DNA from: Nanobdellota archaeon
GTDB lineage: Archaea; Nanobdellota; Nanobdellia; Pacearchaeales; GW2011-AR1
NCBI GenBank assembly: GCA_038046005.1
Contig: JBBSXB010000001.1
Coordinates: forward strand, 64,001 to 128,000
Reading direction: 5' to 3'
Length of the DNA stretch: 64,000 nt
The stretch's first letter is position 1; each line of letters opens with the position of its first letter. A model generated the notes under the pieces. The model was not told the origin of the DNA. It saw nothing but the letters and a program-made list of their open reading frames with translations, and searched no databases. Made by a program: the position numbers and the translations under genes. Below, piece by piece: positions 56,376-64,000 of the stretch.

Positions 56376-56459
56376 GCAGGAGTAGCGAAGTGGTCAAACG
56401 CGTAAGACTCAAAATCTTATGGCTTAGTGCCTTCAGAGGTTCGAATCCTCTCTCCTGCA
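56376..56459 (+). tRNA. tRNA-Leu(CAA)
   Basis: GCAGGAG...CTCCTGC-A; anticodon arm TAAGA-CTCAAAA-TCTTA; long variable arm. Confidence 0.95.
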
Positions 56460-56504
56460 TTTTTGAGAAAGAAAAAATTTAAAAGAGAGAGAGTTAAATT
56501 ATAC

Positions 56505-56833
56505 ATGGGAGAAAAGAGAGAATGGAGTAAACTAGCTGTTTGGAGTTTTGTTTTAGTTATTTCATCAATAGTTCTTATGAGTCTAGCATATATTTTAGAG
56601 ATAATCAGTTCAGACAGATACTACTCATTTTATTCCGAATTTCCTGCATTTATATTTTTATTTGGGCTTCTTCCATTATATCTAACTTTAGTGGGCTTAT
56701 TTTAGCAATAATTTCGCTGAAAAAAATAAAAAAAGAAAATTTAAGAGGAAGGGTTCTTGCCTGGATTGCGATAGTCATACCTGTTATAATATTTTCTATA
56801 CAAATAATCATGATTTTCCTACCTTCACAATAA
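56505..56833 (+). pseudogene. DUF4190-like small membrane protein, frameshifted
   Basis: SKLAVWSFVL... then GLILAIISLKKIKKENLRGRVLAWIAIV in another frame; shift at GGCTTATTTTAG near 56700. Confidence 0.65.
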
Positions 56834-58086: not shown

Positions 58087-58866
58087 TCAATCTTTTATTT
58101 TATTTATTCCCAGCGTTTCAAATTTATTCTGGACATGATTAAACAGCGTCGAGGAAATCAAAGGTTGATGCACTCCGGGATGTGTTTGATTATCAAATTT
58201 TACTTTTCCCAAATAAGCCTGATTAGTGAGAATTTTCTTTAGGCCGTTTACAGAAAAACCATATTTTTTTGACAGCTGTGTTAAACTTATTTTCTGGTTT
58301 AAAAAATCTTGGAATACTTCATTGACAAGGTAAGAATTTTCTGCTGGAATAAGTTTTTTATCGACCATTTTATAGCCAAATGGTGCCCTCGTTATTGGAT
58401 TTCCATCACGGGCTTTTTTATCCATACTGAACTTTGTTCTTTCCCCAGTAACATTTCTTTCAAATTCTGCAAAAGCAGATATTATATGAAACATTAACTT
58501 TCCTGAAGCGCTTGTTGTTTCAATTTTGTCCTGCAAAGATATGAAATCAACACCCCATTGTTTTAGTTTTTCTATGGTTTCTATTAAATCTCGCAAAGAA
58601 CGGGAAAATCTATCAAGTTTGTATACGAAAATTGCCTGGAATTTGTGATTTCTCGCATCTTCAAGTAACTCAACTATTTCTGGCCTACCTTTGATATCTT
58701 TGGCAGACTTACCTTCGTCTTTGTATATTCTTAGAACTTCGTAACCTAAAGCAGAAGCATAGTTTTTAAGTGCTTCTTCTTGTGCCGACATCGAAATTCC
58801 ATGCTTGACTTGTTCTTCTGTTGAGACTCTTATGTAAATTGCTGCTAGGGGTTTTATTTGATTCAT
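58087..58866 (-). CDS. serine recombinase (catalytic domain plus recombinase domain, no zinc ribbon)
   Basis: YIRVSTEEQ, DEGKSA, RP, KLDRFSR, FAEFER, APFGY, ILTNQAYLG, HQPLIS. Probable start MNQIK at 58866 (ATGA overlap with the upstream gene), 259 aa. Confidence 0.93.
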   Translation of the reverse strand: MNQIKPLAAIYIRVSTEEQVKHGISMSAQEEALKNYASALGYEVLRIYKDEGKSAKDIKGRPEIVELLEDARNHKFQAIFVYKLDRFSRSLRDLIETIEKLKQWGVDFISLQDKIETTSASGKLMFHIISAFAEFERNVTGERTKFSMDKKARDGNPITRAPFGYKMVDKKLIPAENSYLVNEVFQDFLNQKISLTQLSKKYGFSVNGLKKILTNQAYLGKVKFDNQTHPGVHQPLISSTLFNHVQNKFETLGINKIKD

Positions 58867-59513
58867 GCTTTCACGCCTATCAAAACCGTCCAAACAGGAC
58901 CAACAGATTTAATTTTCAGGTCTTGGCAATAATTTGAAAGAAGAACCTTAATGTTAGTTAAGTCTACTCTATCAAATGAAGCTTTGTCTAAGACAGTTTT
59001 GTCTTCCTTTATAGACATAACCTTAAAGCCCAAGTAGGAATAATATTTTCTTAAAAAGGTTGTTGTTCTTTTGTCTCTTTTCCAAGTGAATATCAAAATT
59101 GTGCCTCCTCTTTTTGTTACTCTTAAAATTTCTCTTAATAGTTTCTCTTTGGAATCAATGCTTCCAATGAGATTATAAGCCGCATAAGTTACGTCAAAAA
59201 AATTGTCTGGAAAAGTCATGTTGAAAGCATCCATGTTTAAAATCTCAACATTAGGAGAGTTTGCAAGATTTTTTCGAGCAATTTTTAATACTGATTCGTT
59301 ATTATCTATGCCAACAAGTTTTTTCACGAACTGAAACAACTTGTCTGCAGGTCTACCTGTCCCACAACCAACATCTAGGACAACTTTGTTTTGGCATATT
59401 TTTTTTAAAAGGTTGAACTCATATTTGAATGACTCTTTAGCCTCCTTTAATGGTTTTTCTACTGCTTTTACTTGCTCTCTGACATACTCTTGACCATAAT
59501 CTCTCTTTTCCAC
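58863..59513 (-). CDS. class I SAM methyltransferase (UbiE/Methyltransf_11-like)
   Basis: VLDVGCGTG, GID, FPDNFFDV, RVTKRGG. Confidence 0.87.
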   Translation of the reverse strand: MEKRDYGQEYVREQVKAVEKPLKEAKESFKYEFNLLKKICQNKVVLDVGCGTGRPADKLFQFVKKLVGIDNNESVLKIARKNLANSPNVEILNMDAFNMTFPDNFFDVTYAAYNLIGSIDSKEKLLREILRVTKRGGTILIFTWKRDKRTTTFLRKYYSYLGFKVMSIKEDKTVLDKASFDRVDLTNIKVLLSNYCQDLKIKSVGPVWTVLIGVKA

Positions 59514-59521
59514 ATACTTAT

Positions 59522-59581
59522 TTGTGCACTTAGGTTTAAAAAGTTATTGTGCACGTGGATTTAGGACACCCTAAGTGCGCG
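59522..59581. repeat. palindromic recombination-site-like repeat, degenerate copy 1
   Basis: TTGTGCACTTAGGTT (59522-59536), TTGTGCAC (59547) and CGTGGATTTAG-GACACC-CTAAGTGCGCG (59554-59581). Confidence 0.7.
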
Positions 59582-59682
59582 TTTTTAACGAGGGAAATGT
59601 GGTTTTTGAGGATTTTGGGAGTAATTTTATGAACTAAGATAAGCAAAGTGAAGAGAAGAAATATCTAAATAGCGTAAATAGA

Positions 59683-59988
59683 TTATTCTGCTTCTTTAGA
59701 GATTACTTTAACTAAGTCATATCTTGAAGAACTTGCGTCAGCTGGCGGATTTTTAATTTTTGTTATTTTTACTTCAAGAACATATGAATATCCTTCTTCA
59801 TAATCAAATCCATCAATAGAATTATAGAAACGTTCCCCATTCACTATCAAACACTTCATTGGGACTCCACCAACACAATCAACCTTATTTGGACCAATAG
59901 TAATGGTTTCAGTACTAGGAAAAGTTGTAAAGAGTAGTATTATTATAAAAATTATAATGTAAAACCACCATTTTTTTAGTAAATTCAT
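59683..59988 (-). CDS. DUF4377 domain protein with N-terminal membrane anchor
   Basis: VDCVGGVPMKCL, IDGFDYEEGY, NPPADASS. Confidence 0.85.
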   Translation of the reverse strand: MNLLKKWWFYIIIFIIILLFTTFPSTETITIGPNKVDCVGGVPMKCLIVNGERFYNSIDGFDYEEGYSYVLEVKITKIKNPPADASSSRYDLVKVISKEAE

Positions 59989-60050
59989 AATTAGTTTAAT
60001 AAAACAGAGTTTAAAATATTTCCCCTAAAATTTTCCAATTTCTTTTGTGA

Positions 60051-60083
60051 CCTGCCATGGTTGTGCACTTAGGTTGGCTAAGT
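60051..60083. repeat. 33-bp palindromic repeat, copy 2
   Basis: CCTGCCATGGTTGTGCACTTAGGTTGGCTAAGT. Confidence 0.9.
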
Positions 60084-60163
60084 GAATACGCAAAATACAG
60101 AGATATTAGAAAAAAAATTGAAATAAGTTTAAAGAAAAAATAAAATTAAAGATCGAACTGGAA

Positions 60164-60331
60164 CTATTTCTTTCTCGATTGATAGTTTCTCATCAATTTG
60201 CCTACACCTACAATGAGCCAAGCCAAAGCAATTAGCCATGCGGAAAGTGTTATACCAATATCAAGGCCAATAAGTGGTAGTATAAGTAAAACACCGACTA
60301 ATGTGACAAGCCAAGCTGTTACCTTTGCCAT
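60164..60331 (-). CDS. 55-aa two-TM membrane protein
   Basis: Below the ORF-track cutoff. Manual translation MAKVTAWLVTLVGVLLILPLIGLDIGITLSAWLIALAWLIVGVGKLMRNYQSRKK; strong SD AGGAGGG upstream. Confidence 0.75.
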   Translation of the reverse strand: MAKVTAWLVTLVGVLLILPLIGLDIGITLSAWLIALAWLIVGVGKLMRNYQSRKK

Positions 60332-60516
60332 TTCAACCCTCCTTTGATATACCCTAAAGAAAACAAGGGTTATAAGGTTTTTGCTAGCTTGAAGATTAGA
60401 GATTCAATTGTGTTATTAATTTGTAAAACATACAATTAATGCGGCGAGAGTTGGAATATTCTGATAACAATAATCTTACAAATTTCGCGCCATTTTTCGA
60501 CATCAATCTCTTTAGG

Positions 60517-60549
60517 CCTGCCACAGTTGTGCACTTAGGTTGGCTAAGT
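60517..60549. repeat. 33-bp palindromic repeat, copy 3
   Basis: CCTGCCACAGTTGTGCACTTAGGTTGGCTAAGT, 31/33 identical to 60051-60083. Confidence 0.9.
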
Positions 60550-60581: not shown

Positions 60582-60710
60582 GGTTGTTTAAACATGTGTT
60601 TTTGTGTTTAATCGACGGAAAAATTGATTAGAAATCGCTAAGAAAAACAGGTGTTGATTAGGGTGTTTGTCCGTTTAAACAGTGTTTATGGTTGTTTTAA
60701 ACAGCTGTTT
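60582..60710. repeat. cluster of TGTTT/AAACA (GTTTAAACA-type) motifs
   Basis: TGTTTAAACA at 60585, AAAACAGGTGTT near 60643, GTTTAAACAG at 60673, TGTTTTAAACAGCTGTTT at 60693. Confidence 0.65.
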
Positions 60711-60878
60711 TGCCATTAAAAATAGGGAAAAACATCATATTTTAAGACAAAAACATGCTAAAAAATAAATGAATTTCCCTCCAAAAAATTGGGTGCGAGA
60801 TAGATAAAAATTGAGGTAAGATGAAATTTACGACGTAAAAAAAGAAATATTTATAAAGGTTGAAAATCTAAATTGAGT

Positions 60879-61511
60879 ATGTTTGATTGGTTCTTTAAAA
60901 AAAGAGAGAAAAAAGAGTTAAAACACATAGAAGAAGATACAAAAAAGGGTTTTGAAAGTGTCAAAAAAGATATAACAGCTGTAATAGGATGGATCAAACA
61001 CCTAGATTCTGAGAAAAATCTGCAACAAAAAGAGATTGAAGACATAAAAGAGGATTTGTCGACGGTAAAAAATGACATTGAAAGCATTAAAAATATCATA
61101 ACTATGATGAATGAATTAAAACCTCAAGGAGTGTTTAAAACAAACAGACAGGTGTTTAAAGAACAAACACCTGTTTATGCTGTTCAAACAGTTGACCAAA
61201 CAGGCGTTCAAACACCAAATTTAAACCAATTTTCAGTAACTGAAAGAGCAATTCTATGGATTCTCTTAAACTCAGAAATGAAACTGGGATATGAAGATCT
61301 AGCTGCAATGTTGGGAAAAGAAAAGTCCACCATAAGGGGGCAGATAAATAGTATAAAACAAAAAAGTGAAAATTTGATAAGTGAAATTACTGAAAAAAAT
61401 GGAAAAAAGAGAGTATATATAAGTGAAGAAATGAGGGAAAAAATGCTGAAAAAGTCAAAAGTGAGAGTTGGAAATAAGAAAAAAACTGAGAAAAAAGAAG
61501 AAAAAGTCTGA
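60879..61511 (+). CDS. coiled-coil plus C-terminal winged-HTH protein
   Basis: KKGFESVKKDI, heptad region, Q/T linker, FSVTERAILWILL...YEDLAAMLGKEKSTIRGQINSIK; TATA-like box at 60850. Confidence 0.8.
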   Translation: MFDWFFKKREKKELKHIEEDTKKGFESVKKDITAVIGWIKHLDSEKNLQQKEIEDIKEDLSTVKNDIESIKNIITMMNELKPQGVFKTNRQVFKEQTPVYAVQTVDQTGVQTPNLNQFSVTERAILWILLNSEMKLGYEDLAAMLGKEKSTIRGQINSIKQKSENLISEITEKNGKKRVYISEEMREKMLKKSKVRVGNKKKTEKKEEKV

Positions 61512-61853: not shown

Positions 61854-62585
61854 TTACAATTCTCTAAGTTTTAATATTGTTTGAAGGGAGGCAATTTTCT
61901 TTAAGCCGGCTGAAACGTTTAAATGGACATTCTTATTGTTAAGTTTGATTTTATCGACGGGAATTCCCTTTGAGATGATCTTACTGATATAATCTCTTAT
62001 GGAGCTTTCAGTAAGGTTAAGCTTCAGGGCAATGGCCTTATAATCAGCATATCCTTGCTCTTCCTCTAGCTGGTATAATGTTGAAAATACTAAAATTTCC
62101 TTTTCTGTAAGCTTCTTGAATTTCAGCCTTATTTCTTTTTTTAAGGTATCTAAAGATTCAAGTATTTTGGAGGCATCGTGAAGGGTAGTTTTGGGAATCT
62201 CTAAAGGAAAAATCAAGCTATTTTGTGTCTGTTGGTCTGTCTGTTGGTCTGTCTGTCTGTCTGCTGGAACCCCATCATTTCCTATGGAAATAGCTTGATT
62301 TTGGGGTTTTAAAGCCTTAAAAGACTCATTATCTGCTGGGCTTTGTGTTGAGGTTGTCTTATTCTCCAAACTATGTGATGGAGTTAAAAAAGTTGAATTT
62401 TGAAGTATTTTAGAAGAAATAGAAATTAATTCCCTGTTTAAATCCTTTAACTCTCTAACCTCTTCCCCTAAATTGGAAAGTTTCCAATTCAACTCCACTA
62501 GGTTGGTTTTTAGAGAATTTAACTCGTAACTAAGAGAAGAGATGTCTTGTTTAACTTTTTGAAAGGCCTCTTTTATCTCATCCAT
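61854..62585 (-). CDS. coiled-coil plus C-terminal winged-HTH protein (similar layout to 60879)
   Basis: IKEAFQKVKQDI, coiled coil, DRQTDQQTDQQT linker, LTEKEILVFSTLY...YKAIALKLNLTESSIRDYISKI. Confidence 0.8.
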   Translation of the reverse strand: MDEIKEAFQKVKQDISSLSYELNSLKTNLVELNWKLSNLGEEVRELKDLNRELISISSKILQNSTFLTPSHSLENKTTSTQSPADNESFKALKPQNQAISIGNDGVPADRQTDQQTDQQTQNSLIFPLEIPKTTLHDASKILESLDTLKKEIRLKFKKLTEKEILVFSTLYQLEEEQGYADYKAIALKLNLTESSIRDYISKIISKGIPVDKIKLNNKNVHLNVSAGLKKIASLQTILKLREL

Positions 62586-63427: not shown

Positions 63428-63697
63428 CTAAATTAAGTCTTCCTCAGATACTATAACAAAATCGCCTATGGCGATTATAGCACTATAAGGGACTAATAAG
63501 TCATTTGAAGAAGTTTTTTCAAGATTTAAGTTCCTCGTGTAAGGTGTTGCATCTTTAACAACTAAACTGATAAGCTCACCAGATCTAGTCTCAAAGGTAA
63601 CATCTTTGACAAAACCAAGTCTTTTACCCTCTTTCGTGACAATCATCTTGCCTAAAAGCGCACTAAATGGATTTTTATTGTCTTGCATGTTAAGCAT
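63428..63697 (-). CDS. PRC-barrel domain protein (CdpB-like)
   Basis: LLGKMIVTKEGKRLGFVKDVTFETRSGEL...VPYSAIIAIGDFVIV. Confidence 0.88.
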   Translation of the reverse strand: MLNMQDNKNPFSALLGKMIVTKEGKRLGFVKDVTFETRSGELISLVVKDATPYTRNLNLEKTSSNDLLVPYSAIIAIGDFVIVSEEDLI

Positions 63698-63825
63698 AGA
63701 AGAGATTTGTTTATAAATTTTTCTGTACCAACAAATAGATTTGAAAGAATATAGATAACTGGATTAATGGAAGATAATAACGAGCAGACACACTCCTTGA
63801 TTTCGTTTGGAAAAGATTTATAAAG

Positions 63826-63950
63826 GATTTTTTAATTTTTTTTGTTTTTGTTTTATTTATAAATTTTTCTATAATAATATAATATAATATAATATAATTA
63901 ACTTATCTTGAATTATTATTATTATTATTATTATTATTAATTTGTATTAA
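63826..63950. repeat. extremely AT-rich tract with (AATAT)n and (ATT)n tandem repeats
   Basis: T-runs, then ataataatataatataatataatataatt and aattattattattattattattattattaa. Confidence 0.8.
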
Positions 63951-64000
63951 GCCGCTAATTTTATTGTGGGATTTAAAAGAACAAAATGCTAATCTGGAGT

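Follow-up and report, generated by a model that had tools for sequence, protein, structure and literature searches.

A resident serine recombinase in the Xer slot of a Nanobdellota archaeon and a possible integron-like array of single-gene cassettes beside it

The stretch of DNA analyzed here comes from a Nanobdellota archaeon (GenBank assembly GCA_038046005.1, contig JBBSXB010000001.1, positions 64,001 to 128,000 of the forward strand) and is called the window; all 64,000 nucleotides are meant by that word. It contains a short serine recombinase gene, named REC below, next to an array of small genes that are separated by palindromic sites. The locus combines recognizable gene and domain identities, conserved sites that occur nowhere else in the genome, a composite site of fixed geometry, cassettes that vary among relatives with homology breakpoints at the sites, and a distribution complementary to that of XerA, with which REC shares its slot. 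The account proposed for these features is that REC is a resident, autoregulated gene that took the slot of the Xer/dif system, and probably its job, and that sites bound by the Recombinase domain (RD) delimit cassettes which turn over, most likely by site-specific recombination. This account is offered tentatively, as one whose chance of being correct falls slightly short of even.

The repeats that define the array are most easily recognized in the part of it farthest from REC. A 23-nt core, TTGTGCACTTAGGTTGGCTAAGT, is found exactly at 60061-60083 and again at 60527-60549, with no matches expected from 100 shuffles, and the 33-nt copies that contain it (sites 2 and 3 in Table 1) are direct repeats differing at 2 positions. 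An earlier, sequence-only reading of this DNA had described these copies as 31/33 identical and placed the cores 539 and 466 bp apart, and both figures hold. It had also placed the same repeat on the 5' side of each of three accessory genes, which is accurate for these two copies; the region taken for copy 1 (59522-59581) is a different, composite site and not a third copy. Nor are there only three sites, since a fourth, degenerate one lies at the 3' end of the DUF4377 unit. Scattering of the repeats over the genome had been named as a reason to abandon the idea, and none was found: all three occurrences of GTGCACTTAG in the 874,611-bp assembly (15 contigs) are at the array locus. REC is likewise present in a single copy.

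Each intergenic site can fold into a hairpin of 6-7 bp, and this would fit a role in the transcript (as terminators, processing hairpins or small RNAs) or an origin as remnants of chance or duplication. However, the hairpins (-3.7 to -5.4 kcal/mol) are no more stable than those of shuffled sequences (z = -0.72 and +1.17), the sites have no Rfam match at E<=1, and what is conserved is the sequence rather than the pairing, in association with RD-domain genes at more than 100 loci. An explanation of either kind can hardly be right. The idea of a folded, attC-like site was rejected on the same grounds, namely the weakness of the hairpins and the conservation of sequence.

The sites were followed through 81 REC loci, which are the window's own and 80 more from a scan of species-representative genomes. 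The titles of these metagenome-assembled genomes (MAGs) name Pacearchaeota, Woesearchaeota and Nanoarchaeota, and the label 'DPANN' given to the locus is therefore reasonable. In a set of 41 related genomes, full-length REC orthologs are present in 11, including the window's genome (G000), and partial matches occur in others. Palindromic ACTTAG..CTAAGT sites recur beside the orthologs; their density per locus is 0.89, 0.73, 0.46 and 0.26 in four 500-bp bins upstream of REC, as against about 0.05 elsewhere (80 loci). The recombinase and the ACTTAG-N-CTAAGT sites are thus conserved together, as had been predicted. In several loci the 3' end of the F3 coding sequence also matches a loose palindrome pattern (at -2976 in the window's locus), and these were set aside as coding-sequence matches, not sites.

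Two types of site can be distinguished. Type A, a palindrome with an even, 6-bp centre, was found in 66/81 loci, and in most relatives its arms reach about 26-28 bp, with a TTTATAT run included. A CCTAAGT-like half-site lies exactly 24 nt past the palindrome in 55 of these 66 loci and 25 nt past it in 6 more; the half-site is followed by a Shine-Dalgarno sequence and then by the first start codon (ATG) of the REC operon. Because this composite site overlaps the promoter of the recombinase, autoregulation is implied. With at most one mismatch allowed, 8 of the 11 REC-positive genomes contain type A at a single place, which is the REC locus, and a match with 1 mismatch is found in 2 of the 30 REC-negative ones. 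Type B has a 5-bp centre in a 17-bp palindrome whose half nearer to REC shows strong conservation. Of the 99 sites in which the spacer measures 5 bp, 56 have GCACAA behind them and 3 have its mirror, TTGTGC, in front, arguing that the arrays are direct repeats of one polarity.

The genes between the sites vary. Inter-site intervals of 250-600 bp make up 77 of the 151 recorded, and 65 of these 77 contain a co-oriented open reading frame (ORF) of at least 40 amino acids. Arrays are short, with 1-5 sites, and the units bring their own upstream regions. In a set of 66 arrays (54 beside REC and 12 beside XerA) with 199 genes, 126 genes have no homolog in any other array, and the cargo that can be named is mixed: HAD hydrolase, DUF5654, RRM, MGMT-like, M23 peptidase, 2'-5' RNA ligase, HIT and P-loop kinase. 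No homolog of the window's DUF4377 gene turned up at E<=1e-5 when 200 other genomes of the order were searched, and the best database relatives of its product are about 50% identical and come from metagenomes, so that the donor of this cassette cannot be named. The 55-aa membrane protein of the window (TM55) has homologs at the first or second position of arrays in other loci. Shared families differ in rank and order, with TM55 and family c10 swapped between L025 and L138, and family c9 and DUF5654 swapped between L097 and L131. The predicted variation of the genes between sites was therefore seen across relatives in number and identity, and sometimes in order. A metagenome scan with the exact palindrome also returned a 1-kb contig that carries three identical-palindrome sites with different genes, and another on which F2 is accompanied by a site and a gene of 99 aa.

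These arrays occupy a defined place in the chromosome. The typical map reads cdc6(-), PRC, F10, F4, F3(+), F2(-), site-gene units, REC(+), variable genes and rps9(-). F2 lies upstream in 57 of the 81 loci, rps9 lies downstream in 52, and both are in place in 44. A recombinase slot between the conserved F2-F3-F4-PRC-cdc6 block and rps9 is common in archaea of the Pacearchaeota/Woesearchaeota type.

Homology breakpoints between close relatives coincide with the sites. When the window is compared with a genome of the same genus, homology runs from 62696 to 60051, is lost across the DUF4377 unit, which is replaced, and returns at 59637-59515, that is, within the degenerate site and over the composite site. 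It is lost again over the methyltransferase, where the other genome has unrelated ORFs of 75 and 230 amino acids, and is back at 58855 within REC. In a close trio of loci (L057, L068 and L078), whether a segment between two sites is homologous or unrelated does not depend on the other segments. When L057 is compared with L068, homology stops 3 nt past one palindrome and restarts 6 nt before the next, with sides that are 82% and 92% identical. Breakpoints that hug type B sites in this way favour site-specific exchange. Contigs from one public sequencing run (X5) contain the joints 58855>59519 and 59608>60494, which coincide with the breakpoints of the same-genus comparison. These were considered as excision products and rejected, as they belong to a related organism in the same groundwater sample. 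That second organism is present at a similar depth, and its array differs from the window's exactly at the positions of the methyltransferase and the middle cassette.

Several observations weigh against the account proposed here. The odd, 5-bp centre of type B is awkward for the symmetric cut with a 2-nt stagger made by serine recombinases, for which the even centre of type A is canonical. The interval between REC and rps9 also varies, yet it is without sites in 44 of 52 loci, and the slot must therefore also turn genes over by other means. If cassettes were inserted beside the recombinase, an age trend along the array would be expected. The polarity is only weak: a gene with family members stands at the F2-proximal position in 24 of 39 arrays and at the recombinase-proximal one in 16 of 39. 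Among assembled Logan contigs, the sole form in which 8 public runs were examined, there was neither an excision product nor a circle nor an empty junction. XerA is present in 10 of 45 genomes that have REC, and replacement is accordingly statistical and not absolute. Equally variable type B arrays lie in XerA loci, where the RD protein mostly has a coiled-coil or zinc-ribbon N-terminus; the serine enzyme is thus not established as the driver of the arrays.

Some of these observations, and others, would be accommodated if type B sites were bound but never recombined. They would then be operators or architectural elements for RD proteins, REC would be a chromosomal resolvase that replaces Xer/dif and acts at type A only, and the cassettes would reflect ordinary island turnover, for example by homologous exchange anchored on the conserved 25-75-nt site regions. 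The arrays do co-occur with non-catalytic RD-only proteins beside XerA, and from a site to the following start codon it is about 80-200 nt, with TATA-like boxes in between. Similarity between sites reaches 16-75 nt past the palindrome. The pairing of an odd type B spacer with an even type A spacer recalls the accessory and crossover subsites of res, and the variation without sites on the S9 side of the slot is as expected. However, the same site accompanies genes that are unrelated to one another and in many cases unique, and it is absent outside the locus. A 17-bp palindrome with breakpoints 3-6 nt away is very short for homologous exchange, some pairs differ by a permutation of their genes, and a single orientation of all sites is not required of an operator. 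Binding without recombination is a real possibility, and one we doubt.

The relationship to XerA was not anticipated, and it bears on the part of the account in which REC took over the Xer/dif slot. A strong XerA-like gene is missing in 8 of the 11 genomes with full-length REC (41 relatives). Among 201 genomes of the order that are at least 85% complete, 35 have REC without XerA, 10 have both, 10 have neither and 146 have XerA without REC, for an odds ratio of about 51; related genomes in this set do not count as independent observations, and a gene missing from a MAG is only provisionally absent. Seen from the other side, 35 of the 45 genomes of the order that lack XerA have REC. In relatives, XerA takes the same slot between F2 and rps9 in the same orientation, and this protein passes the NCBIfam XerA_Arch model (246.7 against a cut-off of 220) and fails that for integron integrases (210.5 against 265). 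The shared slot and the complementary distribution together argue that REC can replace Xer. The window's genome has no XerA-grade match and no dif-like site at <=2 mismatches, and REC acting at type A would therefore probably resolve its chromosome dimers. Two tyrosine recombinases of 366-372 amino acids are encoded in this genome (G000:C4:41866-42984 and G000:C11:29966-31066); they fail XerA_Arch, one with 56.5 bits and the other with no match, and are probably integrases of other elements.

The XerA loci have a candidate dif site. In 5 of 12 loci a dif-like sequence, TTCGCAYAA-N6-TTRTRCGAA, precedes xerA by 60-150 nt (<=4 mismatches), and dif half-sites are found at -17 in two further loci. 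In L110 and L112 a half-site lies between the TATA box and the xerA start. A further 20 XerA loci (L123-L142) were chosen for adjacent xerA and RD-only genes. The order F2, type B arrays, dif-like site and XerA is found in 12 of these, and a dif-like site (<=3 mismatches) was flagged in 13, mostly upstream of xerA, at positions that were not individually checked. Candidate dif examples directly upstream of xerA are at L107:5164-5187, in L111, L114 and L117, and in 13/20 of L123-L142. Two REC loci retain a near-perfect dif-like site 70-130 nt upstream of type A (L096:7450-7473 and L093:4055-4078); XerA is encoded elsewhere in the genome of one, and no gene in the genome of the other scores over the XerA cut-off.

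XerA loci with an RD-only gene contain type B sites, and none were found in 5 XerA loci without such a gene (L114-L118). Arrays beside XerA and RD-only proteins indicate that the serine catalytic domain is not needed to maintain them. The N-termini of 52 RD-only proteins were sorted by a crude Cys/His regular expression on the first 90 residues into 27 with a coiled coil or no Cys motif (one of which, L066 at 195 aa, is a 5'-truncated REC and not RD-only), 17 with a zinc ribbon, 5 with a single CxxC and 3 that are HNH-like; the HNH-like proteins are 3 of the 27 RD proteins in XerA loci by the same crude expression. Pfam finds HNH plus Recombinase in L123 and a sub-threshold HNH in L135 (19.1 bits, with a threshold of 21.4). 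Such HNH-Recombinase fusions are encoded right after xerA at L123:8193-8825(-), in L124 and L125, and at L135:9037-9636(+). We know of no description of this architecture.

The exchange between REC and XerA has apparently taken place repeatedly. On a tree of S9, L13 and L18e from 79 loci, which were not randomly sampled, the REC/XerA label needs 18 changes, at least 9 of which follow necessarily from well-supported branches. L039 (REC) and L123 (XerA with an HNH-RD protein) are sisters whose flanks are 79-86% identical. At the end of their RD-coding region 315 nt are 76.8% identical, and the sequence from the first cassette to that point is unrelated. Across this swap, only these 315 nt of RD-coding sequence were kept. 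One could go further and picture a two-state locus, in which the RD module and the ACTTAG/CTAAGT sites persist and the catalytic partner is swapped repeatedly between XerA/dif and a serine domain, so that a single serine enzyme both resolves dimers and runs a cassette platform. In this extended form the proposal is rather unlikely.

The protein itself belongs to the serine recombinase superfamily, with a Resolvase-type catalytic domain (PF00239) and the expected Ser and Arg residues. S24 aligns with the Ser of the VST motif of TP901-1 integrase, and S24, R22, R95 and R98 are invariant in 12 REC orthologs. As in large serine recombinases, the catalytic domain is followed by the RD domain (PF07508). 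The zinc ribbon with embedded coiled coil, which in those enzymes controls attP/attB synapsis, is absent and no further Pfam family was found; REC ends at residue 268, 9 residues past the RD match, which leaves no room for either domain. The orthologs are 251-290 aa long, except for one of 446 aa and one match in a 457-aa open frame (G054).

The closest relatives by sequence are CcrAB of the staphylococcal cassette chromosome (SCC), XisF, and the TP901-1 and A118 integrases. TP901-1 is nearest for the catalytic domain (PDB match, 1.6e-25) and A118 for the RD domain (1.4e-08). Scores against NCBIfam models are far below cut-off (CcrB 135.2 vs 900, CcrC 130.5 vs 900, XisF 110.7 vs 375), and the Ccr and XisF models align to REC over the N-terminal half of their profiles only. 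This kinship raises the question of whether a mobile element, such as a plasmid, a provirus or an SCC-like island, has integrated here and makes up the block from rps9 to about 60550, with REC as its integrase and the direct repeats as att sites left by tandem integrations. Accessory genes flanked by direct repeats would fit such an origin, and so would the modest correlation of REC identity with that of host ribosomal proteins (r=0.41-0.52, as against 0.82 for S9 and L13). On the other hand, the locus has the same position with both anchors in 44/81 loci and F2 upstream in 57/81, it contains no replication, capsid or transfer genes, and GC content is uniform throughout the region. The RD-coding part also diverges at the rate of the flanks between sister genomes. 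A scan of 2.9 million viral contigs returned just 3 distant relatives of REC (24-34% identity); the scan was pattern-based and would miss relatives without its two peptide words. A virus-borne origin was rejected on this result, and a mobile element of any of these kinds is very improbable. Identity to the protein of the window averages 72% for REC, 67% for S9 and 63% for L13, a comparison biased by the choice of loci by REC similarity. REC is a resident gene and is more conserved than rps9.

The mechanism that we infer for this resident recombinase starts with its RD domain, which would bind ACTTAG/CTAAGT half-sites, and REC would cut at type A, at type B or at both. Type A with the half-site 24 nt away, on the promoter of the REC operon, would serve as crossover site and operator in the manner of res, and recombination there would resolve chromosome dimers. 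Resolution at its own single site may be the primary role of REC. Recombination between direct type B sites would release a single-gene unit in circular form, and in reverse it would insert one. Excision and insertion of this kind would move cassettes and could produce the gain, loss and reshuffling seen among relatives.

The composite site finds its closest parallel in the resolvase-res systems of Tn3/gamma-delta, Sin and beta. There too, res lies upstream of the resolvase gene (tnpR) on its promoter, and the accessory and crossover subsites differ in spacing. Direct repeats, multiple subsites in a fixed geometry (here type A with the half-site at 24 nt in 55/66 loci) and the proposed function in resolution are also shared. 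These resolvases differ in having a small C-terminal helix-turn-helix domain and in being borne by transposons or plasmids, whereas REC has the large serine recombinase type of RD domain and is chromosomal and syntenic, with extra sites over 1-2 kb and genes between them. From the large serine recombinases, REC differs in its length of 268 aa, in lacking the zinc ribbon and coiled coil, and in being resident rather than cassette-borne. SCC elements stack cassettes bounded by direct repeats at a single origin-proximal site. Serine recombinases of archaea have been seen in transposons and never fully investigated, according to a statement in one review (PMC8371274).

The likeness to Xer/dif lies in the slot, in the occurrence of REC mostly where XerA is missing, and in the single core site per genome. 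The chemistry of Xer is that of a tyrosine recombinase, however, type A is unrelated to the dif-like sequence beside xerA of relatives, and the window's genome has neither an XerA-type recombinase nor a 28-bp dif. Pdif modules of Acinetobacter are similar in that copies of the site of a housekeeping-type recombinase flank single-gene modules; pdif pairs are inverted, whereas the sites of the REC locus are all direct repeats. The dif site of the Thermococcales is 28 bp long and is not adjacent to xerA (Cortez et al. 2010, PMC2958812). At the REC locus, in contrast, site and recombinase gene are neighbours, as are the candidate dif and xerA in relatives.

The comparison with integrons (IntI, attI and attC) is one of the two that the sequence-only reading drew. 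In both systems the recombinase gene has a fixed position and a primary site at its promoter, and small co-oriented genes, mostly orphans, lie between sites; the REC locus also has the single-gene cassettes, variable among relatives, by which an integron array is recognized. The proposal of an integron-like array driven by a serine recombinase stands as far as the conserved sites, the variable genes and the breakpoints at sites are concerned. It needs changing in other respects, as arrays also lie beside XerA, REC is distributed as an alternative to XerA, and the sites are not attC-like. IntI is a tyrosine recombinase with an IntI-specific insert and the adjacent recombinase here is a serine enzyme; attC is read as a folded single strand, with its structure conserved and its sequence variable, and the sites here are 17-bp duplex palindromes with weak hairpins and a conserved sequence; and the units of the REC locus carry their own upstream regions, in arrays of only 1-5 sites. 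Archaeal integrons use IntI and folded attC, and the word 'serine' does not appear in the main text of the paper that describes them (Ghaly et al. 2022, PMC9668308). Full-text literature searches found no description of the REC/cassette locus; supplements, which might list such loci, were not covered by these searches.

The features of the locus are collected in Table 1. The placement of the recombinase directly after rps9 was correct: its ORF abuts the rps9 stop (58086/58087), where the ribosomal-protein cluster ends. The ATG at 58866 is the likely true start of REC, on sequence grounds, and it overlaps the methyltransferase stop as ATGA, suggesting a coupled operon. The methyltransferase is probably a variable 'leader' cargo between the composite site and REC, and a member of the REC operon. 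Pfam agrees with the naming of the methyltransferase and the DUF4377 protein as accessory genes, and the 55-aa ORF remains without a family.

Table 1. Genes and sites of the REC locus (window coordinates)
Feature	Coordinates	Strand	Remarks
REC serine recombinase	58087..58893	-	Pfam Resolvase 1.4e-42 (residues 17-164) and Recombinase 1.1e-07 (192-259 of 268)
S-adenosylmethionine (SAM)-dependent methyltransferase	58863..59513	-	Pfam Methyltransf_11 1e-20
Half-site CCTAAGTGCACAA, with TATA-like TTTTTAAA before it	59522..59544	-	9 nt before first start codon of REC operon
Second TTGTGCAC in composite site	59547-59554		
Type A palindrome, 18 bp, 6-bp centre	59559..59576	.	candidate crossover and autoregulatory site
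Degenerate fourth site, type B, 3' end of DUF4377 unit	59633..59649	-	same-genus homology resumes inside, at 59637
DUF4377 protein, N-terminal hydrophobic segment, cassette gene	59683..59988	-	Pfam DUF4377 4.6e-24
Type B site 2	60051..60083	-	17-bp palindrome 60067-60083, then GCACAAC and GGCAGG on REC-proximal side
TM55, 55-aa membrane protein, cassette gene	60164..60331	-	no Pfam family
Type B site 3, F2-proximal array end	60517..60549	-	palindrome 60533-60549
F2, coiled-coil and winged-helix protein, divergent from array, conserved left anchor of slot	60873..61511	+	family matches weak only

Past the array, the divergent F2 is followed by the small conserved genes F3, F4 and F10 and then by a PRC-barrel gene. 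At 60583-60720, past the last type B site and before F2 begins, there are repeated palindromes of the GTTTAAACAG / AAACAGCTGTTT type; an XerA locus has them conserved too (L107:4500-4600), and they may be an F2 operator or an origin-related element. Within F3, a short tandem repeat of the GTCTGTTG type (62227-62266) encodes a QTDQ repeat. An AT-rich gap (GC 0.24) at 63700-64000 comes before a block of orc1/cdc6, the PolD small subunit, an HAD-like gene and the PolD large subunit, which lies just outside the window (L001:8309-15123, or window position 64309 onward). This gap beside orc1/cdc6 and PolD is likely to be a replication origin, about 4 kb from the array. The PRC-barrel gene (63428-63697) adjoins it, and the title of a preprint ties PRC-domain proteins to FtsZ-based archaeal division. 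On the other side, the array locus has no tRNA gene, and tRNA-linked integration was rejected for that reason. The nearest, tRNA-Leu(CAA) at 56376-56459, sits within the ribosomal-protein cluster and is followed by overlapping hydrophobic ORFs of 92 and 97 amino acids (56376-56833).

That XerA and REC have replaced each other repeatedly at one position, with the RD domain alone retained, is a clean natural case of non-orthologous replacement by domain swapping. We know of no chromosomal dimer resolvase other than tyrosine recombinases, and REC would be the first if its proposed role is correct. Dimer resolution would then not be confined to Xer-type enzymes, nor gene-cassette capture to tyrosine recombinases, and the locus would be the first serine-recombinase analogue of the integron, at the replication origin of ultra-small archaea. 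A compact serine recombinase (about 260 aa) with short, defined sites would be directly testable in E. coli and might become a tool. For the DPANN archaea, whose genomes are below 1 Mb, it would mean that they own a dedicated device for sampling small foreign genes near the replication origin.

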